From assembly GCA_017520845.1 (NCBI GenBank), contig JAFXEU010000082.1, positions 1,483-65,482 of the forward strand: DNA of 64,000 bases. Direction: 5' to 3'. The position numbers and the translations under genes are program-made. The stretch comes from Kiritimatiellia bacterium. GTDB taxonomy: Bacteria > Verrucomicrobiota > Kiritimatiellia > RFP12 > UBA1067. Under the pieces are notes generated by a model. The model was not told the origin of the DNA and made no database searches. It saw only the letters and a program-made list of their open reading frames with translations. Shown here one piece after another: positions 21,126-50,050 of this stretch; position 1 is the first letter of the stretch, and every line of letters starts with the position of its first letter.

Positions 21126-22888
21126 ATCTTTATTTTCGCTTTCACGCCCTGGCCGGGCTTGCTTTCGATTGTGAATTCGCCTCCGAGAGCATTGACGCGT
21201 TCGCGTATGCCCTGAAGTCCGAAGTGACCTTGCAGGACGCCCGGTGCAGATATGGGATCAAAGCCGCAGCCGTTATCCGATACCGAACAGATCAGGTGTT
21301 CCCCCTCAAGCGCTCCCGCTACCTTTATATCTGTTGCCTTGCCGTGTCTCAGAGCGTTCACCACAAGTTCGCGAATCGACCTTAAGAGCGCATGAGCCGT
21401 CTTGTCCGACAGTTTACCGCGCGGCACATTGAACCGCACCGACACGCGTGTCTCGCCGATGTGCGGCCGGAGCGTTTTCAGGACCGCCTGCGTCATGTCT
21501 GGTTCCTCGAGCGCCTGGCTCCTTAGATCCCACAGACAGTCTCTCAGCTCGTCGCGACACGACTTGAGCGTTTTCTCCGCAATCTCAACGTGGCCCGCAG
21601 CAAGTTGCATTGAAACGCCGGTCAGATTTTGAGCAAGCGTGTCGTGAAGTTCAACCGCCAGTCGCGTGCGCTCTTCGGTACGGAGATCCGCTTTAACCCG
21701 CTCTATCTGCACACGGTAAAGTTCGCGTCCCTTGCGTGCGGCAGAGCGGCTGAGCGCGGCGTTCCAGAGGAGAATCGCTATAATTCCGCCGAGAAGGGCC
21801 CCAATTACCCAAAGTATACGTTCTGTCGTCCACCATGGCGGCCAAGCGACGATCTGGATGTCCGATGGGGTGCGCGTGACGAGTAAGAATCTGTGTATCT
21901 GCGGAAATACGGAGTTGGCCCGCCAGTCTTCTATATCCATAACGCATGTCCCGACAACCTCAATCGTGCAGCCGATTTCCATCTCTGCCGTCTTTTCCAA
22001 AGCGGCAGATGCATAGACCGGCACGAGCAGTCCTTCGTTTTCAATCATAAAAAGGCCATCTTCGTCGACTGTAGTGCGTACGATGCCGCGCAGTCTGACG
22101 GGCCGTCCGTGCATGTCGAAGCGAAATCTGGGTCTGCCTTCCGTATCGGTCGTAAGTGTTCTTGCGCTGGATTGCGCGGCTTCTTCCGGCGGCGCAGGTT
22201 TTTCTCGCGTTCTAGTCCACCATGCCCTTGATAAGGTATAGTGATGAAGGTCTGTTCCCGGAAATCCTGAAACATAGATGTGTTCGCCGTATTTCGGCAC
22301 ATTGTCGGTCGCGAGCCGTGCTATGACCAGTTCGTCTTTGCCGGCTGTCCCTTTACCGAGCAGAAGTACGTTGTTTTTTTTCCATACGGCGAGCACGATG
22401 CCGGAGAACCCGTGACGGTCACGGTGTTGAAGTTCTGAAGGGTCGGTTCCTTCAAGTCTTGTAACATCCGGTACGCTGAATATGTCGGTTGCGGGTTTTC
22501 TGTGAATGACGATCGCGTTGGAACTTTGGATCTGTAAATTGCGGCCTAACTTTTCGCGTTGGCCATATAAGCGGGGAATGGGCGTTCCGGTTGCAATGAT
22601 GCCTGCTCCGAGAAATGATGTGATCGTTTCGTCTGTAATATCATCAGCAGGGAAAGCTGCATAGATGATTTCTCCGTCCCATAGCAGTACGAGATAAATG
22701 TAATCCGGATTGATTTCGTCACGGAAAGCGTCCCTTACGATGCATTGCGCACGTATAGGCATCATGTCGTATTGTCCGGAGAGAAATTCATCCGCGGATA
22801 TGAGCGGCGGCAAGGTTTGTGCTGTGGCCGTCCCCGCGAGCAGTGCCGCGCATGCTGCGGCGATGAGATTTTTTAATATTGAATTCAT
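21122..22888 (-). CDS. sensor histidine kinase (HisKA_3 type) with ~330-aa periplasmic domain
   Basis: Signal/TM1, a large extracytoplasmic region, TM2 (ILWVIGALLGGIIAILLW), H-box LAVELHDTLAQNLTG, and ATPase motifs VSDNGCGFD and GLQGIRERV. 4-nt overlap with the regulator gene. Confidence 0.9.
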   Translation of the reverse strand: MNSILKNLIAAACAALLAGTATAQTLPPLISADEFLSGQYDMMPIRAQCIVRDAFRDEINPDYIYLVLLWDGEIIYAAFPADDITDETITSFLGAGIIATGTPIPRLYGQREKLGRNLQIQSSNAIVIHRKPATDIFSVPDVTRLEGTDPSELQHRDRHGFSGIVLAVWKKNNVLLLGKGTAGKDELVIARLATDNVPKYGEHIYVSGFPGTDLHHYTLSRAWWTRTREKPAPPEEAAQSSARTLTTDTEGRPRFRFDMHGRPVRLRGIVRTTVDEDGLFMIENEGLLVPVYASAALEKTAEMEIGCTIEVVGTCVMDIEDWRANSVFPQIHRFLLVTRTPSDIQIVAWPPWWTTERILWVIGALLGGIIAILLWNAALSRSAARKGRELYRVQIERVKADLRTEERTRLAVELHDTLAQNLTGVSMQLAAGHVEIAEKTLKSCRDELRDCLWDLRSQALEEPDMTQAVLKTLRPHIGETRVSVRFNVPRGKLSDKTAHALLRSIRELVVNALRHGKATDIKVAGALEGEHLICSVSDNGCGFDPISAPGVLQGHFGLQGIRERVNALGGEFTIESKPGQGVKAKIKI

Positions 22889-22896
22889 ACTGACAA

Positions 22897-22905
22897 ATTA
22901 TAACA
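22897..22905 (-). promoter_or_regulatory. extended -10 box TGtTATAAT (minus strand)
   Basis: The reverse complement reads TGTTATAAT, 8 nt upstream of the kinase ATG (22888). Confidence 0.5.
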
Positions 22906-22971
22906 TTTTTGCCGTAAACAGGTGTACTCCTGTGCGGTAACATTTAGGTGTTAGCGAGTGAGCAAAATGAG

Positions 22972-23017
22972 CCCCCCCTGCCGAGGGGGTTGATTATGGA
23001 TTGAGACGTGGTAAAAT
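22972..23017 (+). promoter_or_regulatory. GC palindrome + -35 + extended -10 (promoter of GH2-like gene A)
   Basis: CCCCCT-GCCG-AGGGGG (22974-22989), then TTGATT (22990-95), 16 nt, then TGgTAAAAT (23009-17). The ATG at 23024 is 6 nt after the -10. Confidence 0.55.
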
Positions 23018-23023
23018 TTTTGT

Positions 23024-26000
23024 ATGAAAAACTGTTTTGTACTTGTCATCGCATTGTGTATGCTTGGTGTTGCTTCCGCAGAACCTGTTCGCGAAATGAT
23101 CGCGAAGCATTGGGAGGCGATTCCGGCGGCTGAAGCCTCTGAGACGATTCCGTCCGTTCCTGCGGAGAAATGGGGGAAGTGGAATTTCTGGAACGGTCAA
23201 TGGTGGGCGAGGACTATGTTTCAAAAGGAGGCTCAGGGGCCGTCATGGACTCCGCCGTCTGCCGGGTGCGACAAATCCTGGAGCGATTGGAAGTGCGTGT
23301 GGCTTAAGGCTCGCCGCAAGGTTTCCGGTGAATGGTCGGGGCGGAAGGTTGTAATTGAGCAGAGCGCCATTCGCGGTTGTACGGTCGGCGTGTTTGTCAA
23401 CGGCAACTTCATCGGGGAGATAAAAGCGCCTGCCGGTTCGCTCGACGTTTCAAAAGCTCTGAAGTTCGGACGCGAGAATGAATTTTGTCTGCGCCTTTCG
23501 GGAAAGAACCGGGATTTCAAATTGGAAAAAGACCCTCCGATGTTCGTCGTCAGGGATTCTGTTTCGGTCGATGATGTCTTCGCCTGCACATCGTGGCGCG
23601 AAAAGAAGTTGACGGTTGAATTTACCGTCACATCCGACAGGAAAGGTACGGCTGAAGTCGGCGCGGAGGTGTTGGACGCGGACGGCAAGGTCGTTAAGCG
23701 GCTTTCCGGCAAGTATGATGTCGTGCCCGGCGAAAACGTCTTTAAACCGTCTGTGGATTGGCCTGATCCGGTTACTTGGGAGCTGGGACGAGGTTACATG
23801 TACACGCTTAAGACATCCGTTAAAATCAACGGCAAAATCTGTCCTTATAAGGACGTTAAGTTCGGCTTTCGCGAGATATGGCGCGAAGGGAAGAAGATTT
23901 TCATGAACGGTCACGAGCAGAAGTTTCGCGTCACGTATAACTTCGCCTGCAACAGGTTCGGCGCCAAGTTCCTGCAAGGTATCGGTTATAACTGCATCCA
24001 GTTCGCCCACAGGACCGAACTTGATCCGCAAATGGACGAAAAAATGCTCGAATATCTTTCCGCAAACGGCATTTCCGCGATTATTCCCACCACGGCGTTC
24101 GACTGGAATACGAAAAATCCTCTCTTGAAGCCGGGCGAAAAAAGAGAAGAGTTTAAACGCCTTCAGGCGAAGAATCTCCGTCGCTACCGCAATTGGCCGT
24201 GTGTCGCTATGGTTTATATGGGCGTAAACTGTTATCTTCCGCAGTGGTCGTATGAAGCGAAGTATCTCGGTTGCGGCGACAGGAGCGACTTCGGGAAGAT
24301 GATGGCAGACCTCGTCGCGTCGGCGAAGAAGACGAATCCGAACGTCCTCTACTTCTCGCATTCCGACGGTTCCACCGGTGAAATCGCGTCTGCCAATCTT
24401 TACTTCAACTGGGTGCCTCTTCAAGAGCGTATTGAATGGCCGAGCGCTTGGGCGGGCGAGACGGGTAAGTTCCCGTTTCAGGCCTGCGAGTTCGGCCATC
24501 CCTATCAGATGAGCTGGTATCAGGACGGGCGCGATCTTGTAACCGAGTATCTCGCCGCGTATTACGGCGAAGAGGCGTATCTTAAGGAGCCGAAAACGAT
24601 ATCCGACCGTCACGTCGAGTCGCTCTATATTCGTCGCCTCCACCATCCGCTTTTGTGGCGCTTTACCGATGACTTCGTTACGCGCCTGACGCAAGCCTGG
24701 CGGACATACGGAATTAACGCGGGAATCGTCTGGTTTAATCTCGACTACGGCTTCGGTATGCCCCGCTGGACGCTTGAGGGAATCCACAATAAGTATAATC
24801 CGGCTTATAATTTCTTCAAGAGCGAGGCGGACGTGCCTAAAGGTCGCCCGGAATGGGCGCTTCCCTCATGGGATATCTACCGCAAAACCAACCTTGACTT
24901 TCTCGGTTGGATCGGTGGAGGCGGGTCTTTCACCGACCGCTGTCATGCGTACCGATCGGAGGCGATGATCGAAAAGCAGTGTATCTTCATTTGGGACGGC
25001 TTTGACTCGCGCGCTTTTTCCGCGAAATGGAAGGCGTTGATTAACGGTAATGAGATCGCTGCCGGCAACATCAGGCGCGAGCTCAAGTCGAATATCCCGG
25101 CGTTTGCACCGATTTCATTCAAGGCGCCTAAAGTCGTGAAAAAGGCGAAAGGGCGAATCCTCGCCACATTCTTCGATCAAAAGGGCGAAAAACTTTCCGA
25201 GGACGCGTTCGATTTTGAGGTTTACCCGGAAGCTTGCGTATCATGGAAAAAAGCTCCGCACTTCGCTCTTTACGATCCGACGGGGAAGATGGCCGAAAAA
25301 CTTAAATCCCGTGGAATTGATAAATTTAAAATAGTTCAGTCTCCAATGGAGGCTGTAAGCGGGTTTCTCGTTATTGCTGAAGATTCGCTCGGTAAGGACG
25401 GATTTAAGGCTTTGCCGATGGATGCGGTTGAAAAGGGGCTTCGTATACTCGTTCTTCGCCAGTCGTCCGAGGCTTGGAAGGCGTTCGGCTTTGAGGTGCA
25501 GGATCGTGCGAGTCGCACACTCTTTCTGCGGGATACCCAGTCTGCCGCGCTTAACAGAATCGACGACGATTGTCTCCGCGACTGGTCCGGAGCCTCGCCT
25601 GAACTTAGGGTTAAGCATCCTCGTCACGAGCCGCGATGGAAGGGGAATATGGCTCTTGCCGCACTGCAGCTTAAAACTCCTTCGATGGTCGGCTACCGTC
25701 CGCAGATTGAAGGGGAGTTTGATATGAATTATTCCGCGCTTCTCGATTATTCATGCGGTAAGGGCAGTGTTAAGTTCTGTACTCTCGACTTTTTTAATCG
25801 CGGCGCATCCGATGCGGCGGTGGAGCGCACGTTCAACGCGGTATTCTCCGATTTCCTCGCGCAGGGTGGCGCGAGGAGTACATCAGGACCTGCGGCGCAG
25901 AGACATATCGTCGCGTCGGGCGAAGAGGCTAAGCGGATTGCGGCGGAGATGGGCGCGGCCGTTAAACCCGGCGACAAGAGCGGTAAGGGCGATCTTCTGC

Positions 26001-26569
26001 TTGTCGGATCGGATTCTCCGCTTTCCGCCGGTGAGATTCTTGCGGCGGCGAAGCGCGGCGCGAACGTGCTCATTGTCGCGAACGATTCGGCCGCGAAGGG
26101 CCTTGGCCTCGCCGTGACGCCGCGCGATGGCGAGGGAACGTACCGCGTGGAGTTTGATCGCTCAAATCCGCTTTTAAGGGGAGTAGGTCAGAATGTCCTC
26201 CGCTGGCGCGACCGTCTTAAAGCACCGGTTCTCTCCGGGGGAGGGTGGACTGTCGATGCCGACGGGCTTATCGCCTCGAAGACGCTTGCGAACGGTGCGG
26301 TTATAGCGGTGACGACGTTTAGCCCTTACGCCATCGAGCGCGGCATCACCTCGGATCGGGTATTCGTCGTGGATGGTAAGCCGCGGGCGAACGCCGTTGG
26401 CGAGAAGAATCTCGCCGACTGCCGTCGACGCGCCGACATTTCCTTCGAGCGGAGCCGTCAGCTCGTCGCGCGGATCTTGACAAATCTCGGCGCCGCGCCA
26501 GGAAAACCGAAGAACTTGTATTCCGGTCTCGTAAGGCCGCTCGACCCGTATTTCTACACATACTGGTGA
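23024..26569 (+). CDS. secreted GH2-like glycoside hydrolase (paralog A), long C-terminal extension
   Basis: Signal MKNCFVLVIALCMLGVASA. The N-terminal sugar-binding/Ig-like region is followed by VKFGFREIWREGKKIFMNGHEQKFR, which matches the GH2 FGFR..(E/I)...G.F.LNG....RG junction. The rest is divergent. Ends DPYFYTYW. Clear paralog of 35711-39673. Confidence 0.8.
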   Translation: MKNCFVLVIALCMLGVASAEPVREMIAKHWEAIPAAEASETIPSVPAEKWGKWNFWNGQWWARTMFQKEAQGPSWTPPSAGCDKSWSDWKCVWLKARRKVSGEWSGRKVVIEQSAIRGCTVGVFVNGNFIGEIKAPAGSLDVSKALKFGRENEFCLRLSGKNRDFKLEKDPPMFVVRDSVSVDDVFACTSWREKKLTVEFTVTSDRKGTAEVGAEVLDADGKVVKRLSGKYDVVPGENVFKPSVDWPDPVTWELGRGYMYTLKTSVKINGKICPYKDVKFGFREIWREGKKIFMNGHEQKFRVTYNFACNRFGAKFLQGIGYNCIQFAHRTELDPQMDEKMLEYLSANGISAIIPTTAFDWNTKNPLLKPGEKREEFKRLQAKNLRRYRNWPCVAMVYMGVNCYLPQWSYEAKYLGCGDRSDFGKMMADLVASAKKTNPNVLYFSHSDGSTGEIASANLYFNWVPLQERIEWPSAWAGETGKFPFQACEFGHPYQMSWYQDGRDLVTEYLAAYYGEEAYLKEPKTISDRHVESLYIRRLHHPLLWRFTDDFVTRLTQAWRTYGINAGIVWFNLDYGFGMPRWTLEGIHNKYNPAYNFFKSEADVPKGRPEWALPSWDIYRKTNLDFLGWIGGGGSFTDRCHAYRSEAMIEKQCIFIWDGFDSRAFSAKWKALINGNEIAAGNIRRELKSNIPAFAPISFKAPKVVKKAKGRILATFFDQKGEKLSEDAFDFEVYPEACVSWKKAPHFALYDPTGKMAEKLKSRGIDKFKIVQSPMEAVSGFLVIAEDSLGKDGFKALPMDAVEKGLRILVLRQSSEAWKAFGFEVQDRASRTLFLRDTQSAALNRIDDDCLRDWSGASPELRVKHPRHEPRWKGNMALAALQLKTPSMVGYRPQIEGEFDMNYSALLDYSCGKGSVKFCTLDFFNRGASDAAVERTFNAVFSDFLAQGGARSTSGPAAQRHIVASGEEAKRIAAEMGAAVKPGDKSGKGDLLLVGSDSPLSAGEILAAAKRGANVLIVANDSAAKGLGLAVTPRDGEGTYRVEFDRSNPLLRGVGQNVLRWRDRLKAPVLSGGGWTVDADGLIASKTLANGAVIAVTTFSPYAIERGITSDRVFVVDGKPRANAVGEKNLADCRRRADISFERSRQLVARILTNLGAAPGKPKNLYSGLVRPLDPYFYTYW

Positions 26570-26616
26570 CCCCCTCCGCAGAGGGGGTTGGGATATTCTC
26601 GATGTTTGATTATAAT
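26570..26616 (+). promoter_or_regulatory. GC palindrome + -35 + -10 (promoter of the Gly-rich operon; may double as terminator of the upstream gene)
   Basis: CCCCCTC-CGCA-GAGGGGG (26570-26587), then TTGGGA (26588-93), 17 nt, then TATAAT (26611-16). AAGGAGG lies 8 nt before ATG 26658. Confidence 0.5.
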
Positions 26617-26657
26617 ATAATTATCCTTGTAATCAATAGAAAAAAGGAGGTCATAAG

Positions 26658-27695
26658 ATGAAGTCAATAAGAGCCGCACTGCTGGTAACTGCTCTTGCGC
26701 CGCTACTTTCCGAAGGGGCGTTTCTCGACGATCTTGCTGCAAAGAGCAACAGGACGCAGGAATCGCCGTTTGCGACGGGCGGCGACATAATACTTAAGAT
26801 ATCCTCGCGGGAGTATGTGCATATATTTACGAATGTGAATACAGTGTCGACATTTCAGCTGACAGAAAGGTCGATAGCTCGCATTCTTTGTGTGGGAGGC
26901 GGCGGTCCTGGCGGGAACTACCATGGTGGGTACACCCTTCATGGCGGTGGTGGCGGTGCAGGCGGATTTGTGGAGAAGAATGATGTTATGCTCACTGCAG
27001 GTATGTATGCGATCGAGGTTGGTAAAGGTGGTGTGCCATCTGCACCTAATGTTGTCAACAATTCTGGCGGTGAATCTGCAGTAAAGCGCGGAGAGACTGA
27101 CATCGTGCGTGCGCATGGCGGCGGTGGCGGTGGCTCGCCTTCTGGGTATGGCGCCTTGGCGAATGCCGACGATCCTCGATGCGGGCGTAACGGCGCGTCC
27201 GGCGGCGGCTCGTGCGCATGGAACTATGGTGACAAGACGGGCATAGGCGGAAACGCCAAGTACGAGGGTACGGAAGGCAATCGCGGAGGGCTTGCGAAAG
27301 GGAAAAGCGAAGGAGGAACGGACATCCGCGGGGGCGGCGGAGGTGGCGCTGGTGCGACGGGGAACGACAACAACGCCGCCACGAATCCCGGCAAGGGTGG
27401 TGACGGCCGGTCCTGCGACATTACTGGCGATGAGCTCTGGTATGCTGGAGGTGGTGCCGGAGGATTCGCTGGTTCGCAAAACATGTCGATTGCAGGAGGT
27501 CGCGGCGGCGGCGGTTCGGTTGAAATCAGAAGTCAAAAAATTATAGAGACTGCTGCCGTGCGGGGTACAGGCGGCGGCGGATATGGCGGAACAATGGTAA
27601 GTATGGGTGAAAAAAAGGCCGGCAACGGTGCCGACGGGATCGTCATCGTGCGCGTCGTAAGGGCAGCTGAAGGCTTTAAGGTTATTGTCCGATAA
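26658..27695 (+). CDS. secreted glycine-rich-domain protein (Gly_rich / ALK-GRD-like module, copy 1)
   Basis: Signal MKSIRAALLVTALAPLLSEGA. RILCVGGGGPGGNYHGG..HGGGGGAGGFVEKNDVMLTAGMYAIEVGKGG ... AHGGGGGGSP ... GNGADGIVIVRVV. Ends GFKVIVR. Confidence 0.85.
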   Translation: MKSIRAALLVTALAPLLSEGAFLDDLAAKSNRTQESPFATGGDIILKISSREYVHIFTNVNTVSTFQLTERSIARILCVGGGGPGGNYHGGYTLHGGGGGAGGFVEKNDVMLTAGMYAIEVGKGGVPSAPNVVNNSGGESAVKRGETDIVRAHGGGGGGSPSGYGALANADDPRCGRNGASGGGSCAWNYGDKTGIGGNAKYEGTEGNRGGLAKGKSEGGTDIRGGGGGGAGATGNDNNAATNPGKGGDGRSCDITGDELWYAGGGAGGFAGSQNMSIAGGRGGGGSVEIRSQKIIETAAVRGTGGGGYGGTMVSMGEKKAGNGADGIVIVRVVRAAEGFKVIVR

Positions 27696-27712
27696 TTATA
27701 TAGAGGTAATTT

Positions 27713-30700
27713 ATGAGAATCGGGAAATTAGCGTTTTTGTTGGCGATTTCTGCCAATGTATTCATCCCTGCTGCGCGTGCGGCCGTATACCGCGTTTCGC
27801 CTGATGCGGCTGATTCGTCGTCCGGCGCGAGCTGGAGTGAGGCGACTACATTGTCGGATGCGCTTTCAAGAGCGAAAAGCGGCGACGAAGTCTGGCTCAA
27901 AAGCGGTCAGTATACGTTCTCGACAACTTTAGGCGTCGGAGCCGTTGTCTCGACGGACGCTAAAATCCGCGGCGGATTCGCCGGAACAGAGTCGTCCGCT
28001 TCCGAACGCACGTTTTCCGATTCTACCGTCCTAAAAGGCGCCGTTACCAACCTTTTGGTAAATGCGCCTTCGGGTCTTGTCGAAATCGACCACATCACCG
28101 TCAAAGGCGCGAAAGGGCATGGAATATTCAAGAAAGGAGCCGCTTCGCTCGCGCTTTCTTATGTAAATTCCGAGGAGAACGGAATTGTCGAGACGTCGGT
28201 GAACGTCGACTATTCCACCGACGGCCGCGGCGGATTCTTCACGGGCGACGCAACGTCTAGCGAACTCACCCTCGACCACTGCGTATTCCGCGGCAACCGC
28301 GAATGGCGTCCGGGAGGCTTCGCCACCTTCAATATCGATGGCAAGGCCAAGACGACCGGCATCGGCCTTATCGCCAAAAACTTCAAGCGCGTATATATGA
28401 CCGATTGTCTTATGGTCGGTAACGGCCTCAGGCAGCAGGACAAAATAGGCGGCGGTATTGCTGCCATGGTAAGCCCGCCTGGGGAAAATCGGCCTACGCA
28501 AAGTGTATTCTACTTCGAGAATGCCCCGCTTACGGCGACGAGGGTTAGATTTATAGGTAATCGTACGGGAGCTTCGGGCACTCGCGGCGGGCGTCTTACT
28601 TATATTAAGGGCGGAAATGGTTCTTCCTTCGTCGATTGCGTATGGGCCGCGAACGATTTCGTGTGCGCCAAGCCCAAAACCTACACGAGTCCGTCCGGGT
28701 ACAACCAGTGCGGTTCTCTCGTCTTGGACCTCGGCTCGCAGACGGCTACGGCGACCATTTCCGGATGTACTTTCGCGTATAACGTCTCCGGCCTTGGCTG
28801 GACGGCGGGACTGAACGTTGAACAGGGTAAGGTGACCGTCGACAAAAGCGTCTTTTTTGGGAATGTCATAAGCTCCTATTTCGGCAGATTCGCCGATTTG
28901 CACGTATGTTACCGAGGCAGCTGCACTGTTAGCGATTCCGTTTTCAGAGGGCGCGGCGGAATGTATTTTGATGACTCGAATACACGTTTGACGATAGACG
29001 AGAGTTGTCGCTACGGCGATCCTGATTTCAAGACTACGCCTCAGGAATTTATTTCTAAATATGTCACTTTGGGCGTAGGTGTAGATGGCAATGACAATGC
29101 GACAACGATGTCGCTTACTGATGAATCGTTTCCGTTTGTCGAGAAGAAAGCCTCATTCCCTACGGGGGGGTATTGGAACGGATTTACCTTTTGGGTAACA
29201 AACGATTCCAATGTCGAGGCGATCGACTTGACGCGCGGCGAGTTTAAGCCGATTGCCCAGAGTGAACCGGAGGCTCCTGACACAAGTTGCGATTGGGCGC
29301 GCAAGACGCTTGGCGTTGAACCCGTCCAGACGTACTACATGCCCAACACCTTCATGCCATACGAAACGATCGGCTGCCAGAGCATCAGCGGGCACAAAGT
29401 CTTCTGGTTCAACCACACGTACGACCCGGACTGGGGCGGGGTCTATCCCGAACAGGAAGACCGTTTCGCTCTTGCAAAGCCCTCCGACGGCGACAATCCC
29501 GGCCGTCCGCTTCTCGTGGTGCTGCATTCGCGCGGCGGCGGTAAGTCCGGCGCGGAAGGAACGATCGGCTCGCTTGGCAATTCGGACAGCGTCGCATATT
29601 GTCCGCCGGAGTTCTACGGGCTTGTTCTCGATTGTATGGGCGATGTCGGAAAGAAAGACAGAGACTATACCGTGCTCAACGATTTCTGGTGGGGGGCAAT
29701 GCCGCCGGGAACAACGGCCAATGGAAACGCCGGTCATGCTATGGGTGGGTCATATTGGACATTTATTTACGGAACGCTTATGGGAGAGCTTTTTGACGGT
29801 CCGACCAAGGATCCGTGGAAGAACGCGATCCATCCCGTTGAAACTTGTTTACAGTGGCTTTCTCGCGGCGAGCCGCCCGCGTCGAAGCGCGTGATGGATA
29901 CGATTGAATGGGTCGTCAGAAAATATAAGATCGACCGTAACCGTATTTATCTTTGCGGCAATTCAATGGGCGGTCAGGGTTCTCTCGGTATCGGGCTTCC
30001 GCACGGTGAGGTTTTTGCCGCCATAAACGGAAATGTTCCCGCCACCATCTGGTATGCGGCCAAGCGCATGGGGTTCGTCGATAACAACGGCAACGATGTG
30101 TCCTTCGAGGATTATCAGGTGCCCGCCTACGACCCTCCGTTCCTTCTCGACTGGTCAGGCTCAGATGATGCCTGGAGTCGTGATCACGATGTCCTGTATC
30201 GTAACATGTCGCGCTTCAAATTCGGCATGATCGGCTGGTGGGGCGACTACGGACATTGCGGCGGCAAGAAGAGCGCACGAGAGAAGAATGATCTCGTCGA
30301 GCAATTCCCGTGGCTTGAAATCCGCAAGAACGAGGCTTATCCCGTTTTCACGGCGGCCTCTACCGACGATCAACTTCCTTGGCCGCAGGTCAGCTGGTAC
30401 GATACCGGAAATGTCATTATTGAAAACGGCATCGAAAAGGTCGATGCCGGGCTTGTGCCGCGTCTCGGGTGTGATACGAACGGACAGGTAAACGCCTGGT
30501 TCCGCTGGGATGTCAAGGCCGACACGCCGGAAACATTTGAAATCGACCTTAAAATCGCAAATTCCGATGAGGTCGCGTCGACTCAGTTTACCCGTCCGAC
30601 CGTATCGGTGGTGGATGTTACGCCTCGCCGCTTGCAGGCTTTCAAGCCGACGACCGGTAAGGTGCGCTGGACCTACGGAACTCAGACCGGCGTCGTCGCC

Positions 30701-33700
30701 AAGGACGCCAAGCTCGGCGTATATACAATTCCGCAGATCCCGGTTTCGCAGACGCCTACGACTCTTAAGCTGGTCGCTGTTCCTGCCGACACGCCCGTAG
30801 GTCGGGAAGAAGCGGACAATGTGGCGATTCCTCCTTCTGCGCCTGCAGCGGTGATTTACGATGGAACGCTCAAGACAGCGGAACTTTCGGGGGGTGTAAA
30901 CTGCATCGTTTCCGGAAACACCGGTTGGACGGATGCCGGCGAGTATACGATTACATGCTCACCGAATGAAGGTTTTGTATGGGTCGACGGCACCTCTGAA
31001 CCGAAAAGTTACAAATTTGTAATTTCAAAGGCCGCGAATTCTTGGTTGCGCGAGCCTTCCATTTCAGCTACCGGTTGGGAGGCGGGAAAATGCAGTACCG
31101 TTGTTGATGAGGGCGAGGCGTCTTTCGGTACGGTAGCGGCAAGTTATAGTACTGAGCAATTGGCGACTCTGGAGGCTGGGAATTACGAGATTACATTCTC
31201 TGTAGCCGAGACTAAAAATTACACTGGACTTGAAAAGCGCATACCTTTTAGCGTATCCGTATCCCAGCCACCCACCGATGACGGAGAGGATCCGGAGGAG
31301 CCGGAGGATCCAAGCCCCGCGATGATGGTCTCGCTGACCTTCGATGACGGTTATGGCAGCCATTATTCCGTTGTTGCGCCTGCGCTCGAGAAGTACGGCT
31401 ATCGCGGTACGTTTAACATTATTGTCAATCAGACGGGCCGTTCGCGCAGCGGGGCGACGATGGATTGGGCGAAAGTCGCCGAACTGGCTGCACGCGGGCA
31501 CGAGATAGCACTCCATTCGAAGTCGCATCCCGAGTCTCTTTTAGAGGGTTGGAATCCCAAGCCGGAATCGGTCCTGCGCTATGAGATGGATCTGGGACAG
31601 CAGCAGATCTCGCAGAAGATCGGAGTGCCTTGCCGCATTTTCTGCTTTCCGGGCAATCATGTCGGGAAGAACGGAGAACTTGAATCGCGCGCCAATCTGG
31701 CCGGTATGCTAGACGAGACGCCGAACCGCGCCTGGCCAGGGACGGGGGATTTCAAGGCTTGGTTCCAGAGCCTGTCGAAGAGCGGGACTAAGTCGATCAC
31801 GCTGATGTTTCACGGATGCAATAGCGACTCAGGCTACCAGGATCTTACCAAGGAACAGTTTGAGGAATTTGCAAAAACGCTGAAGGAGTGTGAGGACGAG
31901 GGGCTTATTAAGGTCGTCAGCTATTGGGAGGCTGGCGCTCTGAAAGGTGACTTGTCGGCCGTAGCCGTACCGTTCGTGCCGCATGTCTTTTATGATGGGA
32001 CTGTCCGTTCCCCCGTCGTGCGTCTTGACGGTTGCGTGATGGAGCCTTTCGCCGGTGCGACAGACGCGGGCGAATACGAGCTTTCCTTCTCGTTGGCGGA
32101 TCCCGACAAGCATTGGGTCGGCGGCGGAAGCGGCGTGAAAAAGGCTACCTTCATCATCGAGAAGAGCGACGTCTGGCTGGACGCTCCTAAGTTGAGCCGC
32201 TCGCGTTTCGCAGCGAACGGCGAGCTCCCCACGCTCAACGCATTCGTTCCCTCCGAGGGAGTGACGGCAACGCTTGACGGCCAGCCGTTCGATTGGAAGA
32301 GCGGTGTGCTTGCGAACACTGTCGGTGAGCATACGCTTGTATTCACTGCCCCGGAGAGCAAGAACTTCACCGCGTTGACCCACGAACTTACGTATGTTGT
32401 TACGGCGACGGACGAGTCGCTTGACTGGGTTGAGACGGATGGCGCGTCGTATTTCGATCCGCAGGTGTGGCCAGGCTCAAATACGACGGTTACCGTCGAG
32501 TACGCCACCGATACGCTTCCGACTGAAAAGTATCCTGCGACGGTTTTTGGCTCTCACGGATGGGACGAGACGTATTTTCGTTTCGTGCAGAAGGCTGACG
32601 GAGCGACAGAGGCGGACTGGGGCGGCACGAGCGAGCGTGTCCTTCAGATTCCCCTTGATCGCCAATGGCATACGCTGACGATGGGCGCGAACGGCCTTTC
32701 GCGCGACGGAGCGACGTTCGCTTCGTTCACGTCGGACTGGTTCGGCGATTCGACGAATCTCCTCTTCGGCGCGGACAATCTCGGCTGGGACAACGACATT
32801 GCCAACGGGAGCGTGCGCTCGCTTTCATTCGGGCGCATTCGCTACCGTTCGATTGAAGTACGCGAACGCGGTGTTCTCGTGCGCTCGCTCCGTCCTCTTC
32901 GGATTGGCGGCGAAGCTGGACTTTGGGACGACGTCGAGGCCCGGTTCTACGGTAACGCCTTTTCGTCAGGAACGATTCTCGGCAGCGACGAGTATCAGCC
33001 CGTCTATGCGCCTTACGACGGCGAGGTTTCGGTCGTTTCAGGCAATAAGTCCACTGTCGAGGGGCAGACTCTCCTGACGTTCGTCGATCCTTCGGCGATG
33101 GGGCATTTCACGCTTACAAAGCCGGCGATAGCCTGGATTCTTGCGGTTGGCGGCGGCGGTAGCGGCGCGGTCGAGGCTGGGCATGGTCGGTCCGGCGGAG
33201 GAGATGGCGGCGCCTTCGTCGAGCGTAAGGCGGTCTCCCTTGAGGCGGGAACCTACGATGTTGTCGTCGGTGCCGGCGGTGCGGCAGTGCAGGCCGTCTG
33301 GGCAACTGATGTCCCCAGTAATAACGGCGAGCCGTCTTCCGTGTCCATGGCGGGTGAGACGTCCGCGCCGATTATCACCGCCCCGGGCGGCGTCGGCGGC
33401 AGGCAGGGAAGCTCGATCTTGAACTCCGGCAATGGCGGCAATGGCGCGGGACAGGCGGGCTTGGCGGGATCCTATGAAGTCGGCGGTAACGGCGGCTACG
33501 GCGAGGAGTCTGCAATTACCGGCACGGTTGTCACGTACGCCGCAGGCGGCGGCGGTTCGGGGATGACCACGGCCGGGCGCGGCGGCGTCGGCGGCGGCGG
33601 AAATGCCGCCACTCCAAACGGCGGCGACGGCGCAGCAGGTGAGGACGGTAAGGGCTCCGGCGGAGGAGCGGCCTCAAAGTCCAATCAATATTCCGGCAAG

Positions 33701-35605
33701 GGTGGCAACGGTGTCGTTTATGTGCGCATTCTCGGTCTGGATGCGGACACGCCTCAGTCGCCAGATCCGTCGACTCCGGAAATAACGCAGATAGCATTAC
33801 CCTCTGCCGTTTCTGGCCTTGTGTACACAGGTCAGGAGCAGGTTGGCGTTCTCCCCGGTGACGGCTACGAAGTTACAGGAAATACGGCAGTTGATGCCGG
33901 CACTTATGAGGCAACGGTGGTATTGTCAAATCCTGAAGGAACACAGTGGGCAGATGCCGGTGCCAATGAGCGTAAGATTTCGTGGTTCATCGCTCAGGCT
34001 CTTAACGAATGGACTCGACCGGCCGCTATTACCGAGACGGAATGGACTTTAGGCAGTTCAGCCGGGGTTGTTACATCACCGCTTGCGCGTTTCGGCGAGG
34101 TGACGGCTACTTTGAACGGCGAACCCTGGGATGGTGAAATGCCGGTAGCAAAAGGCTCTTATACATTGCAATGGACTGTGGCCGCTTCTAAAAACTGGAC
34201 GGAACTTTCGAAATCGCTCACGTTTGCGATTGTAGATAAGCCGGCAGTGGTTGAAGGGGATGCCGAAGTTTCAGCAATTGAAAACACCTTCGCCAAATAC
34301 AGGGATGGAGGTGATCTCGTGCTCGTATTCTCGAATACGACGGCTGTATCGTCGTTTACTCTTGCCTCTTCCGCGTCAGCGCGTATTCTTGTTGTCGGTG
34401 GCGGCGGAGCAGGCGGCTGTCAGGGCGGCAACGGCCGTGCGGCCGGCGGCGGTGCCGGCGGCTTTCTTGAAATGGCCGATGTCGTTTTCACGCCTGGAAC
34501 TTATGACGTTACGGTGGGTGCGGGCGGCTCGAGTGTAAATAATACCGGATCGATCGTGGGCGGTAGCGGCGGCGATTCGTCGATAACGAAAGGCGGCGAC
34601 TGCATAGCGCTTGCCTACGGCGGCGGAGGAGGAGGCGCGGAAGGGAAGCCTGGCGCGGCCGGCGGCAGCGGCGGAGGCGGCGGCGGGTGCGGCGGCTGGA
34701 CTTCTTATTCTTCTCCCGGAGCCGCGACGCAGGCTGGTTCCCCGTTCGAGGGGTATGGCAATGCAGGCGGTGCAACCAGCATAGCGAATGCAGGATCTGG
34801 CGGCGGCGGCGCAGGCAAGCCCGGAGCGAGCGTGGGCTATCAAGCCACGCAGGGCGGAGACGGCGGCGAGGGCAGGTTGAGCGACATAACAGGAGAGAGC
34901 GTTTGCTATGCAGGCGGCGGTGGAGGAGCTGGTTCGACGGCAGGCGGTGTCGGCGGACTTGGCGGCGGCGGCTCCGGTTCCGCGGGGGCTTACGCCGCCG
35001 GTCGGGCGGGTGCTGACGGTCTCGGCGGCGGCGGCGGCGGGTGCGGCGGCGGAAACCACGGCTACTTGTCTGGGAAAGGCGGGAGCGGCGTCGTGATAGT
35101 TCGCCTCACGTTTGTGGGCGGCGGCGAGCCGGAGACGCTTCCAAAACCGCAGGTAGACGGCGTCGATGTCGAGCCTGGCAAGCTCGCTGAAGAAGCCAAG
35201 AGCGGAATGGAAATCGTAATCCCGCAAGGATCCAAAGTCTCTATTGATCCTGAAACCGGAAGTGTGACGCTTGACGGATCGGTTGTTTGCACCTTCCCCG
35301 GCTATTATACGGTGAAAGTGTCCGATTCCTCCACAGGCGGAGCGCAAGTGGTCGCGCTTGAACTTAATGAAAGTGCCCGGCCTTCCATATTGGATGTAAT
35401 GCTCGACAACGGAGAATTTTGTATAACGGTTCCTGATACTATTTCAGGGTTGTTTTACTCGCTTGAATACAAGCGTTTGCTCAATGCTCCCTCATGGGAT
35501 AAGATTGATGTGCCTATTCAGTCGACGGGTGAAGCCAAAATGGTATTGCGGGCGAAGGCTCAGGATGATTCTGGGTTCTACCGCGTTAGCGTGAGCGACA
35601 GGTAA
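27713..35605 (+). CDS. giant (2630 aa) secreted multidomain protein: beta-helix + alpha/beta-hydrolase esterase + Ig/MBG-like repeats + CE4 deacetylase + jelly-roll + 2 Gly-rich modules
   Basis: Starts 17 nt after the previous stop. Signal ..IPAARA|AVYRV. The beta-helix N-cap is SWSEATTLSDALSRAKSGDEVWLKSGQYTF. Esterase motifs are LLVVLHSRGGG (29522-42) and GNSMGG (29957-74). CE4 motifs are SLTFDDG (TFDDG 31337-51) and HEIALHSKSH. Gly-rich modules start WILAVGGGGSG (about 33133) and RILVVGGGGAGG (about 34381), and each ends GKGG.GVV.VR. Confidence 0.9.
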   Translation: MRIGKLAFLLAISANVFIPAARAAVYRVSPDAADSSSGASWSEATTLSDALSRAKSGDEVWLKSGQYTFSTTLGVGAVVSTDAKIRGGFAGTESSASERTFSDSTVLKGAVTNLLVNAPSGLVEIDHITVKGAKGHGIFKKGAASLALSYVNSEENGIVETSVNVDYSTDGRGGFFTGDATSSELTLDHCVFRGNREWRPGGFATFNIDGKAKTTGIGLIAKNFKRVYMTDCLMVGNGLRQQDKIGGGIAAMVSPPGENRPTQSVFYFENAPLTATRVRFIGNRTGASGTRGGRLTYIKGGNGSSFVDCVWAANDFVCAKPKTYTSPSGYNQCGSLVLDLGSQTATATISGCTFAYNVSGLGWTAGLNVEQGKVTVDKSVFFGNVISSYFGRFADLHVCYRGSCTVSDSVFRGRGGMYFDDSNTRLTIDESCRYGDPDFKTTPQEFISKYVTLGVGVDGNDNATTMSLTDESFPFVEKKASFPTGGYWNGFTFWVTNDSNVEAIDLTRGEFKPIAQSEPEAPDTSCDWARKTLGVEPVQTYYMPNTFMPYETIGCQSISGHKVFWFNHTYDPDWGGVYPEQEDRFALAKPSDGDNPGRPLLVVLHSRGGGKSGAEGTIGSLGNSDSVAYCPPEFYGLVLDCMGDVGKKDRDYTVLNDFWWGAMPPGTTANGNAGHAMGGSYWTFIYGTLMGELFDGPTKDPWKNAIHPVETCLQWLSRGEPPASKRVMDTIEWVVRKYKIDRNRIYLCGNSMGGQGSLGIGLPHGEVFAAINGNVPATIWYAAKRMGFVDNNGNDVSFEDYQVPAYDPPFLLDWSGSDDAWSRDHDVLYRNMSRFKFGMIGWWGDYGHCGGKKSAREKNDLVEQFPWLEIRKNEAYPVFTAASTDDQLPWPQVSWYDTGNVIIENGIEKVDAGLVPRLGCDTNGQVNAWFRWDVKADTPETFEIDLKIANSDEVASTQFTRPTVSVVDVTPRRLQAFKPTTGKVRWTYGTQTGVVAKDAKLGVYTIPQIPVSQTPTTLKLVAVPADTPVGREEADNVAIPPSAPAAVIYDGTLKTAELSGGVNCIVSGNTGWTDAGEYTITCSPNEGFVWVDGTSEPKSYKFVISKAANSWLREPSISATGWEAGKCSTVVDEGEASFGTVAASYSTEQLATLEAGNYEITFSVAETKNYTGLEKRIPFSVSVSQPPTDDGEDPEEPEDPSPAMMVSLTFDDGYGSHYSVVAPALEKYGYRGTFNIIVNQTGRSRSGATMDWAKVAELAARGHEIALHSKSHPESLLEGWNPKPESVLRYEMDLGQQQISQKIGVPCRIFCFPGNHVGKNGELESRANLAGMLDETPNRAWPGTGDFKAWFQSLSKSGTKSITLMFHGCNSDSGYQDLTKEQFEEFAKTLKECEDEGLIKVVSYWEAGALKGDLSAVAVPFVPHVFYDGTVRSPVVRLDGCVMEPFAGATDAGEYELSFSLADPDKHWVGGGSGVKKATFIIEKSDVWLDAPKLSRSRFAANGELPTLNAFVPSEGVTATLDGQPFDWKSGVLANTVGEHTLVFTAPESKNFTALTHELTYVVTATDESLDWVETDGASYFDPQVWPGSNTTVTVEYATDTLPTEKYPATVFGSHGWDETYFRFVQKADGATEADWGGTSERVLQIPLDRQWHTLTMGANGLSRDGATFASFTSDWFGDSTNLLFGADNLGWDNDIANGSVRSLSFGRIRYRSIEVRERGVLVRSLRPLRIGGEAGLWDDVEARFYGNAFSSGTILGSDEYQPVYAPYDGEVSVVSGNKSTVEGQTLLTFVDPSAMGHFTLTKPAIAWILAVGGGGSGAVEAGHGRSGGGDGGAFVERKAVSLEAGTYDVVVGAGGAAVQAVWATDVPSNNGEPSSVSMAGETSAPIITAPGGVGGRQGSSILNSGNGGNGAGQAGLAGSYEVGGNGGYGEESAITGTVVTYAAGGGGSGMTTAGRGGVGGGGNAATPNGGDGAAGEDGKGSGGGAASKSNQYSGKGGNGVVYVRILGLDADTPQSPDPSTPEITQIALPSAVSGLVYTGQEQVGVLPGDGYEVTGNTAVDAGTYEATVVLSNPEGTQWADAGANERKISWFIAQALNEWTRPAAITETEWTLGSSAGVVTSPLARFGEVTATLNGEPWDGEMPVAKGSYTLQWTVAASKNWTELSKSLTFAIVDKPAVVEGDAEVSAIENTFAKYRDGGDLVLVFSNTTAVSSFTLASSASARILVVGGGGAGGCQGGNGRAAGGGAGGFLEMADVVFTPGTYDVTVGAGGSSVNNTGSIVGGSGGDSSITKGGDCIALAYGGGGGGAEGKPGAAGGSGGGGGGCGGWTSYSSPGAATQAGSPFEGYGNAGGATSIANAGSGGGGAGKPGASVGYQATQGGDGGEGRLSDITGESVCYAGGGGGAGSTAGGVGGLGGGGSGSAGAYAAGRAGADGLGGGGGGCGGGNHGYLSGKGGSGVVIVRLTFVGGGEPETLPKPQVDGVDVEPGKLAEEAKSGMEIVIPQGSKVSIDPETGSVTLDGSVVCTFPGYYTVKVSDSSTGGAQVVALELNESARPSILDVMLDNGEFCITVPDTISGLFYSLEYKRLLNAPSWDKIDVPIQSTGEAKMVLRAKAQDDSGFYRVSVSDR

Positions 35606-35607
35606 AA

Positions 35608-35645
35608 GGGCAGGGCGGCTTCGAGACGAAGCCGCCCTTTATGTT
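35608..35645 (+). terminator. rho-independent terminator
   Basis: GGGCGGCTTCG (35613-23) pairs with CGAAGCCGCCC (35627-37) around a 3-nt loop. It is followed by TTTATGTT, directly after stop 35603-05. Confidence 0.7.
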
Positions 35646-35659
35646 GGAATAAAACAATA

Positions 35660-35704
35660 CCCCTCAAAGGAGGGGGTTGTGCGGCAGGTTTGATTTGATA
35701 TAAT
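35660..35704 (+). promoter_or_regulatory. GC palindrome + -35 + extended -10 (promoter of GH2-like gene B)
   Basis: CCCCTC-AAAG-GAGGGG (35660-75), then TTGTGC (35677-82), 16 nt, then TGaTATAAT (35696-704). The ATG at 35711 is 6 nt after the -10. Confidence 0.55.
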
Positions 35705-35710
35705 TCAAAT

Positions 35711-38700
35711 ATGAAAATACGTTTGTTTTTTGCTGCAACGATTGCTGCTTTCTCTGCGTTGGCTGCATTTAAAGAAGGAAAAACTCTTATCCCCGCTGAA
35801 TGGAAGGGTAAGAGCGTTCGCTATGAGCAGAAGCTCGCCTTTTGCGAGGTGGATGTTATGGTGAACGGAAAGAAGGCCGGTACCGCGTATGCGCCGGACG
35901 GTACGGTCGAACTTGCGCCGTTACTTAAATATGGCGTCGAGAACGAAATCACGACCATTGAACGCAAGGCGGACGCGTACTACGGACGCGGCGACGAGCC
36001 TTCAGGCGCGAGGCGCGACGGAAGGCACCGTCTTTCCGCCGCCGCGCTTGTGCCGCGCAGCGTCGCGTGGATTGATGATTTTTTTGCGCGTCCTTCGTGG
36101 CGCGAGAAGAAACTTTTCGTCGAGGTTGAGATTGAGTCCCTTGATCGCGTGCGCGCCGTCGTTGAAGTCGAGCTTTCTGACTTGCAAGGCTCTCCGGTTC
36201 TTAAGCGGGCTAAAAAAATCTCCGAACTTGAAAAGGGCTCCAATGTCGTGACGGTTGAATTGCCGTGGACGGACGATATCGTCGCATGGGAGCCTGTCGC
36301 CAATGCCAAAACTTACGATTGCAGAGTAAAAATGGCGGTTGGCGGCAAGGAATGCGATTCACGCCGTCCGCGTTCGATGATCGGCTTTCGCGAGATCTGG
36401 CGCGAGGGCAAGGAGATCATGCTCAACGGTCATGTGCAGCGGTTTCGCGGCTTTTGGAATCAGGGGCTTCCGGCAAACGCGTCGGATGTTCATCTTTACG
36501 GCTACAACCTTTCGTACGAGACGCATAAGCATTGGGCGTATTGGTGGGAGAATGAGGGAGATCTTGCCCGTAAGTCTTCCGTGGGAATTGCGGTATTTAC
36601 GGGTATGCCGTCGATTTATTACGTTCATGAAGCGATCCGCCGCGACCCCAAGTGCACAGAGCAGTTTAAGCGTTCGCTTAAGTCTTGGATGCGTTCCTGG
36701 CGCAACTATCCGTGCATTGTGGCCGCCTCTACCGGCGTCAACCAGATATGCCCCGAGCGCAATATGCGCCCCGAGATCCTCGGGCAGGTGCGCGAAGAGG
36801 GCGGAGTCGTGGACAATATCGAGTTCGCCGCCGCGATTGCCCGCGAGATGAACCCCAACTGCCTGTACTTCTCGCATGCCGACGGTACCGAGGCCGATAT
36901 CTCCTCTTCGAATCTTTATTTCAACTTTACACCCCTCCAAGAGCGCGAAGAATGGCTTTCGCAGTGGGCGACGAACGGGATTCTCCCCTGGTACGCCGCA
37001 GAGTTCGGCGCTCCGTACTACGCCTGTTGGTTTCACAGCCGTGTTCCCGAGATGACGGAGTGGCTTGCCGTTTACTATGGCGAGCGGGCATACGAATTGG
37101 AGAGCGATAAAATGCTCGTTCACACCCGGGATTTCGCGAAAAGTTGCCTTAGGTTCACTCACGGCGGCTGGGTTGAGCCCGGACGGCGCGATCTCTATCA
37201 CTTTCATCCGCTCGCGGAGGAGTTCTCTCGCCTGCTCGTTGGACGGGTCAACCGCGCGTGGCGCACATACGGTCAGAACGGCGGGCTTATGTATCTTCAG
37301 TCCTGGGCGTGGGATAAGCCGAACGTTATCCGGGAGCGCCAGTGTGTGGCGAACGGCGATTTCGTAGCGTACATCGGCGGATATCCCGAGCCTACGGATA
37401 AGACGCATGCTTACCGGCCGGGAGATGAGGTTAGAAAAAATCTCGTTTTTGTTTGGGACGGCCTCGGAGAAAATGAAGTCACCGCCAAATGGCGCATAGA
37501 GGAAATAGGCGGCGGCGTCGTCGCCTCCGGCGTTAAGAAGGTCAAACTGAATCAAGGTGATATCAGGCTTCAGCCGGTTGCGTTTAAAACCACTGACGTA
37601 AATGCCGAAAAACGCTATCGCCTTTCTGCGGAGTTTTCGACAGCGAAGGATGGAGACAATCCGGCCAATGCCACCGTAAAATCCGATTCGGTAGAATTTG
37701 AAATTTATGCCAAGCGTCTCCCCCGCGCGTGGAAAGGCGCACCGGTGGCGCTCTTTGATCCTGCGGGAAAAACATCCCCGATCCTTGATGGTTTCGGCAT
37801 AAAGTACGTTAAAGTCAATTCGCTCGGCGATCTCCCGAAGAATACGGAGCGCCTTATTGTCGGTTGGCGGGCTCTTTCGTCGGCGCAGGGGCTGGAGAAG
37901 CTTACGCCGCGTGTGGAAGAAGGGCTTAAAATTCTCGTCATGCAGCAAACGGCTGATGTTTGGCAGTCGCTCGGTTTCACGGTTGAGGATTCCATGGCGC
38001 GACAGATGTACAACGTGTCGCTCGAACGTGTCGCCGACCGGGATCTCGGGTACTGGGCTGGTGCGCCGGTCGAGGACGCGGTATTCGGAAATGTGATGAA
38101 GCACGAGACGCGGCGTGGGCCGCGCTGGACGCATACGCATGCCGTTTCGGCGACGCCGATTTTAATTCCGCAGAAAGCGGGGTTCCGTCCGCTTGTCCGA
38201 GGCGAATTTGACATGTCATACACGGCGCTTATGGAGGAGGTGACGGGTGAGGGTTCCGTCACATTCTGCGCGTTTGACTTTGAAGGGCGGACGGAAAAGT
38301 GTCCTGCCGCCTGGCGCGTCGCATCGGCGACGATAGAGCGCTTTCTCCATGGTGAGACTTCCGCGCCGACGAGAGTCTACACTTTAGGAAAGGCGGCTGA
38401 GAGGTTGGCGAAGACGATGTCCATTGAAAGCTCGCCGTACAAAGGCGGTGTGCTTGATAATGCGGAGCTTCTCATCGTTGGGCCGGACTCGGAAGTCGAC
38501 TTCGCAAAAATTGAGAAGTCCGTCGGGTCGGGCCGTGCGTACATCTTCGGAAATCAACAGCTCGCAATCGAGGCCGGGATCGCCGATTCTACTGGCGTAG
38601 TATACAGGGTGCGAAATTTTAAATCTCTTCCCGCTTCCGTTTTTAGAGGCGTAGGCCCTTCGCTTCTCAGGTGGCGCGACGGAGTTAAAGTGTCGCGCTT

Positions 38701-50029: not shown

Positions 50030-50050
50030 AGGAAACGTCTATTTCGGTTG

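Follow-up and report, generated by a model that had tools for sequence, protein, structure and literature searches.

A predicted secreted protein of 2630 residues from a gut Kiritimatiellia bacterium joins a beta-helix, a serine-esterase-type hydrolase, a CE4 deacetylase domain and glycine-rich modules of phage-fibre type

What is encoded by a single bacterial frame of 7.9 kb that carries the motifs of several unrelated proteins, and what could such a product be for? The gene in question lies at 27713..35605 (+) of the stretch of 64,000 nucleotides analysed here (the window), which is part of contig JAFXEU010000082.1 (positions 1,483 to 65,482, forward strand) of assembly GCA_017520845.1, a genome of 2.74 Mb in 116 contigs from a Kiritimatiellia bacterium of the herbivore gut. 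A model that had seen only the DNA letters (the sequence-only reading) described the product as a secreted protein with two de-esterifying activities on one cell-surface scaffold and did not recognise its exact architecture as described; literature and database searches did not find a description of it either. The giant protein is an unusually large, otherwise recognisable multi-domain carbohydrate-active enzyme. Its function is probably, although with considerable reserve, that of a Sec-exported multi-modular enzyme that strips acyl and acetyl decorations off a polysaccharide and is targeted to it by binding modules of phage type. The catalytic activity, the polysaccharide substrate, the binding role of the glycine-rich and beta-rich modules and the extracellular location are all inferred.

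The frame runs without interruption over 2630 residues, as had been claimed, and starts with an ATG preceded by AGAGG as a plausible ribosome-binding site. Residues 1-24 (27713..27784 (+)) are a Sec signal peptide by direct reading of the sequence, with predicted cleavage after ARA (MRIGKLAFLLAISANVFIPAARA/AV), and form the sole 19-mer with a Kyte-Doolittle mean above 1.4 in the entire protein as scanned for hydrophobicity; the earlier signal peptide call is thus upheld. This peptide contains no Cys and therefore no lipobox, and neither a transmembrane anchor nor a recognised C-terminal sorting domain was found by the hydrophobicity and family scans, so that the "cell-surface" part of the earlier description was not borne out. 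The domain order proposed from the letters agrees with the one found by domain analysis and most of the motifs were placed correctly: GNSMGG at residues 749-754 (nt 29957-29974) and SLTFDDG at nt 31331-31351 are exact, and HEIALHSKSH and the terminal GFYRVSVSDR are both found in the protein. LLVVLHSRGGG is present as well, although it begins at nt 29510 (29510-29542) and not at 29522-42, an error of 12 nt at the start.

The first hydrolase comprises residues 520-1033 (29270..30811 (+)), an alpha/beta-hydrolase esterase module with a C-terminal beta-sandwich, supported by homologues, AlphaFold2 (AF2) and Foldseek. Its predicted triad is Ser751 (nt 29963-29965), Asp819 (nt 30167-30169) and His848 (nt 30254-30256), all on the plus strand and invariant in a 128-sequence alignment (A1). 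The AF2 model of residues 25-1033 (1009 residues), built on this alignment, has a mean predicted local distance difference test score (pLDDT) of 79.5, exceeding 90 in the esterase, where Ser751 of GNSMGG sits between strand 721-726 and helix 728-737 (model numbering) and a strand precedes each of Asp819 and His848, the canonical triad order. The structures matched by Foldseek in the PDB were esterase D / S-formylglutathione hydrolases and CE1 feruloyl esterases (E = 5e-7 to 5e-5, template modelling (TM) score 0.5-0.58); by sequence, LC-Est1C (3wyd) matched at 3.7e-8, and polyhydroxybutyrate (PHB)-depolymerase-type esterases matched around the elbow. The module has in common with the esterase D and CE1 proteins (7yvt, 3fcx, 7xrt BT_4077, 5cxx, 5vol and 1jjf) the fold, the GxSxG elbow and the Ser-Asp-His order, whereas it is 12-17 % identical to them at a TM score of about 0.5, has large insertions and carries the extra C-terminal beta-sandwich. 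Standalone homologues number more than 525, with a length of about 460 residues and 38-51 % identity; the functionally labelled ones are named 'prolyl oligopeptidase family serine peptidase' by PGAP. By its model, then, the module is a serine-esterase-type alpha/beta hydrolase of esterase D / CE1-like fold in a family of its own, with more than 500 sequences and no characterised member.

The second hydrolase comprises residues 1194-1448 (31292..32056 (+)) and is confirmed by sequence as a CE4 / NodB domain, predicted to be a metal-dependent polysaccharide deacetylase, well above the Pfam cut-off: PF01522 (Polysacc_deac_1) scores 56.7 bits against 23.1 (E = 2.9e-15, residues 1201-1316). Motif 1 is TFDDG at residues 1209-1213, with the catalytic base and the metal Asp (Asp1211-Asp1212), and motif 2 is HSKSH at 1268-1272, with the two metal His (His1268 and His1272); in alignments, each falls on its counterpart in 7ax7, 5jmu and 6dq3. 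Motif 5, LMFHG, is also present and provides His1367 of the LxH catalytic acid. The Asp-Asp, HSxxH and LxH motifs are kept at 31 % identity in the relative P0224. Besides the three structures named, of which the xylanase-linked 7ax7 was the best match, the PDB matches include PgaB/BpsB and peptidoglycan deacetylases; the domain is of the TFDDGY type and its best NCBIfam matches are HfsH and PgaB, enzymes whose substrates are bacterial exopolysaccharides. Of the two de-esterifying activities on one scaffold, what stands is a pair of hydrolase modules with intact catalytic residues in one secreted chain, and what finds no support is the location at the cell surface.

Multi-modular carbohydrate esterases are common and an esterase together with a CE4 domain on one chain is ordinary. 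The closest known counterparts are multi-catalytic carbohydrate esterases and xylanases from gut and cellulolytic bacteria. The Clostridium thermocellum GH11-dockerin-CE4 protein (2c71, also among the PDB matches of the CE4 domain) and the xylanase-linked CE4 7ax7 are also secreted CE4 enzymes beside other catalytic or binding modules, with the same Asp-Asp and His-His motifs. The giant protein differs from them in being about 3-5 times larger, in lacking a glycoside hydrolase module and in having a head formed by a beta-helix and an uncharacterised esterase; moreover, it appends Gly_rich_2 modules and a phage-type beta-rich domain instead of classical carbohydrate-binding modules or dockerins.

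The beta-helix of this head is right-handed and parallel and comprises residues 25-519 (27785..29269 (+)), with an N-terminal helix cap at residues 47-53. The fold is confirmed at the level of the model, in which the DSSP assignment gives runs of short-strand triplets behind a helix cap. The segment scanned alone matched PF13229 (Beta_helix) at E = 6.7e-5 and 23.0 bits, under the gathering score of 25.9. A 9-sequence profile that includes five paralogous copies from the same genome matched in the PDB beta-helix lyases only: the PL9 lyases Pel9A (1ru4) and BT4170 (5olq), the PL6 alginate lyase BcAlyPL6 (7dmk) and the Vi-antigen lyase VexL (6fi2), with E = 1e-4 to 7e-3. Foldseek of the 1009-residue N-terminal model against the PDB gave a list dominated by alpha/beta hydrolases in which the beta-helix was hidden; it was visible against the viral library, and the BFVD matches were pectin-lyase-fold, tailspike and DUF1565 proteins (E = 1e-6 to 1e-3). 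Strand pattern, profile matches and viral structural matches all agree with the pectin-lyase-fold cap read from the letters. The cap motif and the coils are shared with the PL9 and PL6 enzymes, VexL and phage tailspikes; lyase catalytic residues could not be aligned with the giant's beta-helix, which stays below the Pfam gathering score. Its role is possibly that of a glycan-binding groove or of a lyase, or possibly that of a mere binding or spacer domain. Other copies of this beta-helix type were identified in the genome: a 1191-residue open reading frame (ORF) of the window without Pfam hit (59401-62976 (+)) contains two in tandem (about 59467-60765 and 61432-62493), and more are present on contigs C34 and C40.

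Two modules of the family Gly_rich_2 (PF21722) lie in the C-terminal half. Module 1 comprises residues 1776-2013 (33038..33751 (+)) and was modelled by AF2 with pLDDT above 90; module 2 comprises residues 2191-2468 (34283..35116 (+)), with 35 % Gly and the best PF21722 stretch at 2215-2465. Over the whole protein the family scores 90.1 bits against a cut-off of 24.3 (E = 2.7e-25) in two stretches with a pair of Ig-like domains between them, just as two Gly-rich modules separated by Ig-like repeats had been proposed. Module 2 can be aligned both to module 1 and to the product of the adjacent upstream gene (P0271, 26658..27695 (+)), a secreted protein of 345 residues with a single Gly_rich_2 module (PF21722 2.7e-14; phrog_2295 5e-33). 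Foldseek of module 1 against the PDB identified the fibre of cyanophage Pam3 (7ypx, 1.5e-5, 24 % identity), the tail tip of Bxb1 (9d93, 2.7e-5) and the TG domains of LTK/ALK (7nx1 and 7lrz, 6e-4 to 7e-3). Bundles of the Gly_rich_2 type are receptor-binding tips in phage fibres and the ligand-binding domain in ALK/LTK. Judging from its model, module 1 has the polyglycine or polyproline II (PPII) bundle fold shared by the Pam3 fibre, the Bxb1 tail-tip 'brush' and ALK/LTK, whereas here the fold is found in a secreted bacterial enzyme, in two copies and with a free-standing paralogue next door. Glycine-rich domains of this fold have been described as PPII helical bundles (PMC13243192) and as presumed anti-receptor 'brush' domains (PMC13243795); a search on PF21722 / Gly_rich_2 in the literature library used here found no papers.

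Gly_rich_2 is usually present in 2-3 copies per protein, and its partners elsewhere are SASA, Y_phosphatase3 (tyrosine-phosphatase-like), GH2, GH31 and Peptidase_S74. The genome itself contains 10 Gly_rich_2 ORFs, five of them giants of 1507-3016 residues with 2-4 modules each; ORFs of this family were identified on contigs C94, C46, C12, C68, C85, C76, C45 and C39.

Immediately before module 1 lies a beta-rich domain (residues 1566-1775, 32408..33037 (+)), the 'jelly-roll' of the sequence-only reading. Its family, for which Pfam has no model, comprises at least 570 representative clusters at E <= 1e-3, often in 2-6 tandem copies per protein, with the consensus LEYIESTGTQYIDTG...YSCQIYDNGTLVRD..PC...GEVGLYD.V..KFYGNAGTG.F. 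No Pfam match was obtained with the query or with 10 relatives, the PHROG scan likewise gave no domain match, and a profile of 21 sequences run against the PDB found solely a compositional match to FlgE and nothing credible. The AF2 model of residues 1566-1765 contains beta strands only, at a pLDDT of 30-77, a low confidence probably due to poor MAFFT placement of distant pieces; since this model is unreliable, a jelly-roll fold is unproven and that claim was not sustained. Typical members of the family were identified, in a search with a single member, on 24 IMG/VR viral contigs beside tail genes. By sequence, then, residues 1566-1775 are a divergent member of a beta-rich family whose typical members sit in phage tail modules. 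Together with the two Gly_rich_2 modules it would give the protein three probable binding modules of phage-fibre type, by analogy with these relatives.

The catalytic and binding modules are joined by three tandem pairs of immunoglobulin (Ig)-like domains: pair A (residues 1034-1193, 30812..31291 (+)) and pair C (residues 2018-2190, 33764..34282 (+)), both Ig/MBG-like, and pair B (residues 1449-1565, 32057..32407 (+)), which is like the other two and has no Pfam hit. Homologue block maps and tblastn revealed that the pairs are similar to each other and to many copies across the genome, while a self-BLAST of the protein for internal repeats found nothing. None of the MBG scores reached its cut-off (MBG_2 20.2 bits against 25, E = 9e-4, in pair A; MBG_3 13.5-14.7 bits), and in pair C the matches to MBG_3 (E = 0.033) and PKD (E = 0.019) are both sub-threshold. 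The repeats announced by the sequence-only reading are therefore present as three related linker pairs, and their Ig/MBG-like identity is a resemblance in sequence that is faintly suggested by these scores. The chain is closed by a domain of about 160 residues (2469-2630, 35117..35605 (+)) that ends in FYRVSVSDR before the stop codon and gave no family match in the family scan. The ending FYRVxV was considered as a general sorting tag and rejected, being present in just 2 large ORFs of the genome, the giant included.

Related loci were identified in Kiritimatiellia metagenome-assembled genomes (MAGs), one of them from sheep colon, and the close relatives of the giant are mosaics in which the beta-helix and esterase head is kept in all. 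The stretch from CE4 through Gly-rich module 1 is missing in P0007, while P0004 and P0005 end after that module; P0003, P0006 and P0008 contain as additions a third Gly_rich_2 module, an SGNH-like module (judged by eye) and Cys-rich linkers. P0010 contains a GDPD domain, and in P0009, which comes from a single 9.5-kb contig, the head runs straight into a full GH2 (all five GH2 Pfam domains), either a genuine fusion or an artefact of assembly. The breakpoints between modules coincide with the Ig-like pairs. Neither this mosaic character nor the phage-fibre type of the Gly-rich and beta-rich modules had been noticed in the sequence-only reading. Cys-rich linkers between domains (e.g. CEHDWSLSKSVAATCEAGGYDEYKCSKCQ...) were identified in P0003, P0006, P0008 and P0010; they are CxxC-rich and zinc-ribbon-like and are absent from the protein of the window.

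L002 and L001, two further MAGs, contain orthologues of the giant gene with a nucleotide identity of 95-96.6 % (95 % for L002; window 27728-35484 compared with L002 10016-17784 and L001 1232-8197), whereas the flanking two-component-system and GH2-like genes (window 20517-26590) are 79-82 % identical. The last ~440 codons are much more diverged with respect to L002: against a synonymous divergence (dS) of about 0.04 elsewhere, Gly-rich module 2 has 0.19 and the C-terminal domain, the most diverged part at 61 % amino-acid identity, has 0.87. The ratio of nonsynonymous to synonymous divergence (dN/dS) with respect to L002 is 0.26-0.58 in all domains but one. Because the gene is far more alike between species than its flanks and its 3' end is diverged, these sequences suggest a recent horizontal exchange and an internal recombination breakpoint. 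As for the small Gly_rich_2 gene, it precedes the giant gene together with its upstream region (window 26560-27695), is found after the giant gene in L002 (17937-19062) and is missing in L001 from the stretch that separates the GH2-like gene from the giant gene; its differing positions in the three genomes indicate that both genes move relative to each other.

The neighbourhood is formed upstream, on the minus strand, by a NarL-type two-component system and, on the plus strand, by a GH2-like gene, the 345-residue Gly_rich_2 gene, the giant, a second GH2-like gene, a GDSL esterase, two unassigned genes and a GH27-like gene, beyond which lie GH95, two DUF6528 proteins and CE15. It had been proposed that the flanking GH2-like enzymes handle the product. 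A catalytic TIM-barrel was not detected in either of these proteins; of GH2 they match only the Ig-like sandwich domain, and their PDB matches are weak. The downstream neighbours differ in L002; such a hand-over was not confirmed and is speculation. Apart from this locus, the window contains a 671-residue fusion of MurC and the C-terminal part of MurB (50048-52063 (+); Mur_ligase domains and MurB_C).

How would a protein of this composition work? The binding modules and the beta-helix would keep it attached to a decorated polysaccharide, from which the two hydrolase modules would then take off O-acyl and N- or O-acetyl substituents, and this removal would open the backbone to glycosidases. This enzymatic reading is in agreement with the pattern of the family, whose close members exchange other modules that remove substituents or act on glycans (GDPD in P0010, GH2 in P0009), with the dN/dS values, and with the GDSL esterase, the GH27-like protein, GH95 and CE15 of the neighbourhood. 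The nearby plant-glycan genes argue for plant wall polymers as the substrate.

Several observations weigh against it. The esterase module reaches no curated Pfam or NCBIfam cut-off (Peptidase_S9 16.5-19.1 bits against 22.6; the PHB-depolymerase family TIGR01840 21.9 against 107.9; the remaining families also below), and its standalone homologues are found in housekeeping-like gene contexts and not in clusters of carbohydrate-active enzymes, so a non-carbohydrate substrate is possible. In the CE4 domain the Arg of the RPPY motif 3 is replaced by Cys (CRIFCFP, compared with FFRPP in 7ax7); an Arg is located three residues upstream of this position and the pattern CRxFCxP is also kept in P0224. 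The profile alignments of the beta-helix span the cap and generic coils only and not a lyase active site with the Ca2+-binding Asp cluster and the catalytic Lys/Arg of PL9 and PL6. No outer-membrane secretion signal or anchor was identified in the protein. Finally, the genes downstream of the giant differ in L002, which makes the functional link to the surrounding glycosidases weak.

Much of the same evidence could be read in favour of a microbial target. The protein would then be a tailspike-like weapon or scavenger directed not at plant or host glycans but at bacteria in the vicinity, whose acetylated capsule, exopolysaccharide or cell-wall polymers it would recognise and strip. Each type of non-catalytic module has phage receptor-binding relatives, the N-terminal profile matches VexL, the TFDDGY type, the NCBIfam matches and several of the PDB matches of the CE4 domain lead to enzymes acting on bacterial polymers, and the GDPD phosphodiesterase of P0010 fits wall polymers decorated with glycerophosphate. 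However, each of these matches is either weak or generic, the structure matched best by the CE4 domain is the xylanase-linked 7ax7, the GH95, GH27-like and CE15 genes nearby are typical of plant-glycan use, and the surroundings contain neither a lytic domain nor an immunity or secretion-system gene. A microbial target is thus unlikely, though it deserves consideration.

A broader version of the same idea, decidedly unlikely and best taken as speculation, is that Kiritimatiellia have built giant secreted 'free tailspikes' from receptor-binding parts of phages (the beta-helix, the PPII-bundle 'brush' and the tail-tip beta-rich domain), which would carry interchangeable decoration-stripping enzymes (CE4, SGNH-like, GDPD and CE1-like esterase) against surface polysaccharides of other gut microbes. 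If that were true, Gly_rich_2 would represent a class of modules not recognised before, through which bacterial enzymes bind glycans or envelopes.

It might also be supposed that the protein is mainly a structural or adhesive component of the surface, in which the enzyme-like domains merely bind. Its very large size, the many Ig/MBG-like spacers, the three probable binding modules, the sub-threshold scores of the esterase and the non-canonical CE4 motif 3 would fit such a role. Degenerate domains that serve only for binding normally lose their catalytic residues; here the Ser, Asp and His of the esterase are invariant across 128 homologues and the metal and acid/base residues of the CE4 domain are kept at 31 % identity, which renders a purely adhesive function very improbable.

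The integrity of the frame, for which Gly-codon repeats are a known concern of the sequence-only reading, was examined in public data. Runs of at least four gut-metagenome studies contain 91-99 % of the k-mers of the ORF, and Logan contigs from four different studies are collinear with it, without indels or joints along the main path; X4 (27000-34626) and X2 (27000-30508 and 30572-36300) together cover all domain junctions, and X11 spans 32814-36053. Three other Kiritimatiellia MAGs are also collinear, and L002 contains an intact orthologue of 2634 residues with 92 % amino-acid identity; a 2634-residue cluster that is 96 % identical has 57 member sequences. That several genes were wrongly joined in assembly through their Gly-codon repeats, or that the ORF is a fragment of a prophage tail-fibre gene, would fit the foreign contig ends attracted by the Gly-rich repeats (33447, 34459 and 35022-35052, assigned to other Gly-rich genes), the variable module content of the relatives and the single contig of P0009, but the collinear independent contigs, the intact orthologue and the signal peptide reduce it to an extremely improbable account, and mis-assembly was rejected. 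A prophage origin of the locus was likewise discarded, no phage genes flanking the giant ORF.

Kiritimatiellia are abundant, uncultured gut glycan degraders, and for this reason an enzyme that can be tested and whose modules are defined offers a useful entry into their biology. Three aspects are worth keeping: an esterase family in which the triad is perfectly conserved and none of the more than 500 sequences is characterised, an evolution by module swapping at the Ig-like linkers, and Gly_rich_2, which in hundreds of large proteins of Kiritimatiellia accompanies a wide variety of catalytic modules. This last association points to an unrecognised class of binding modules.

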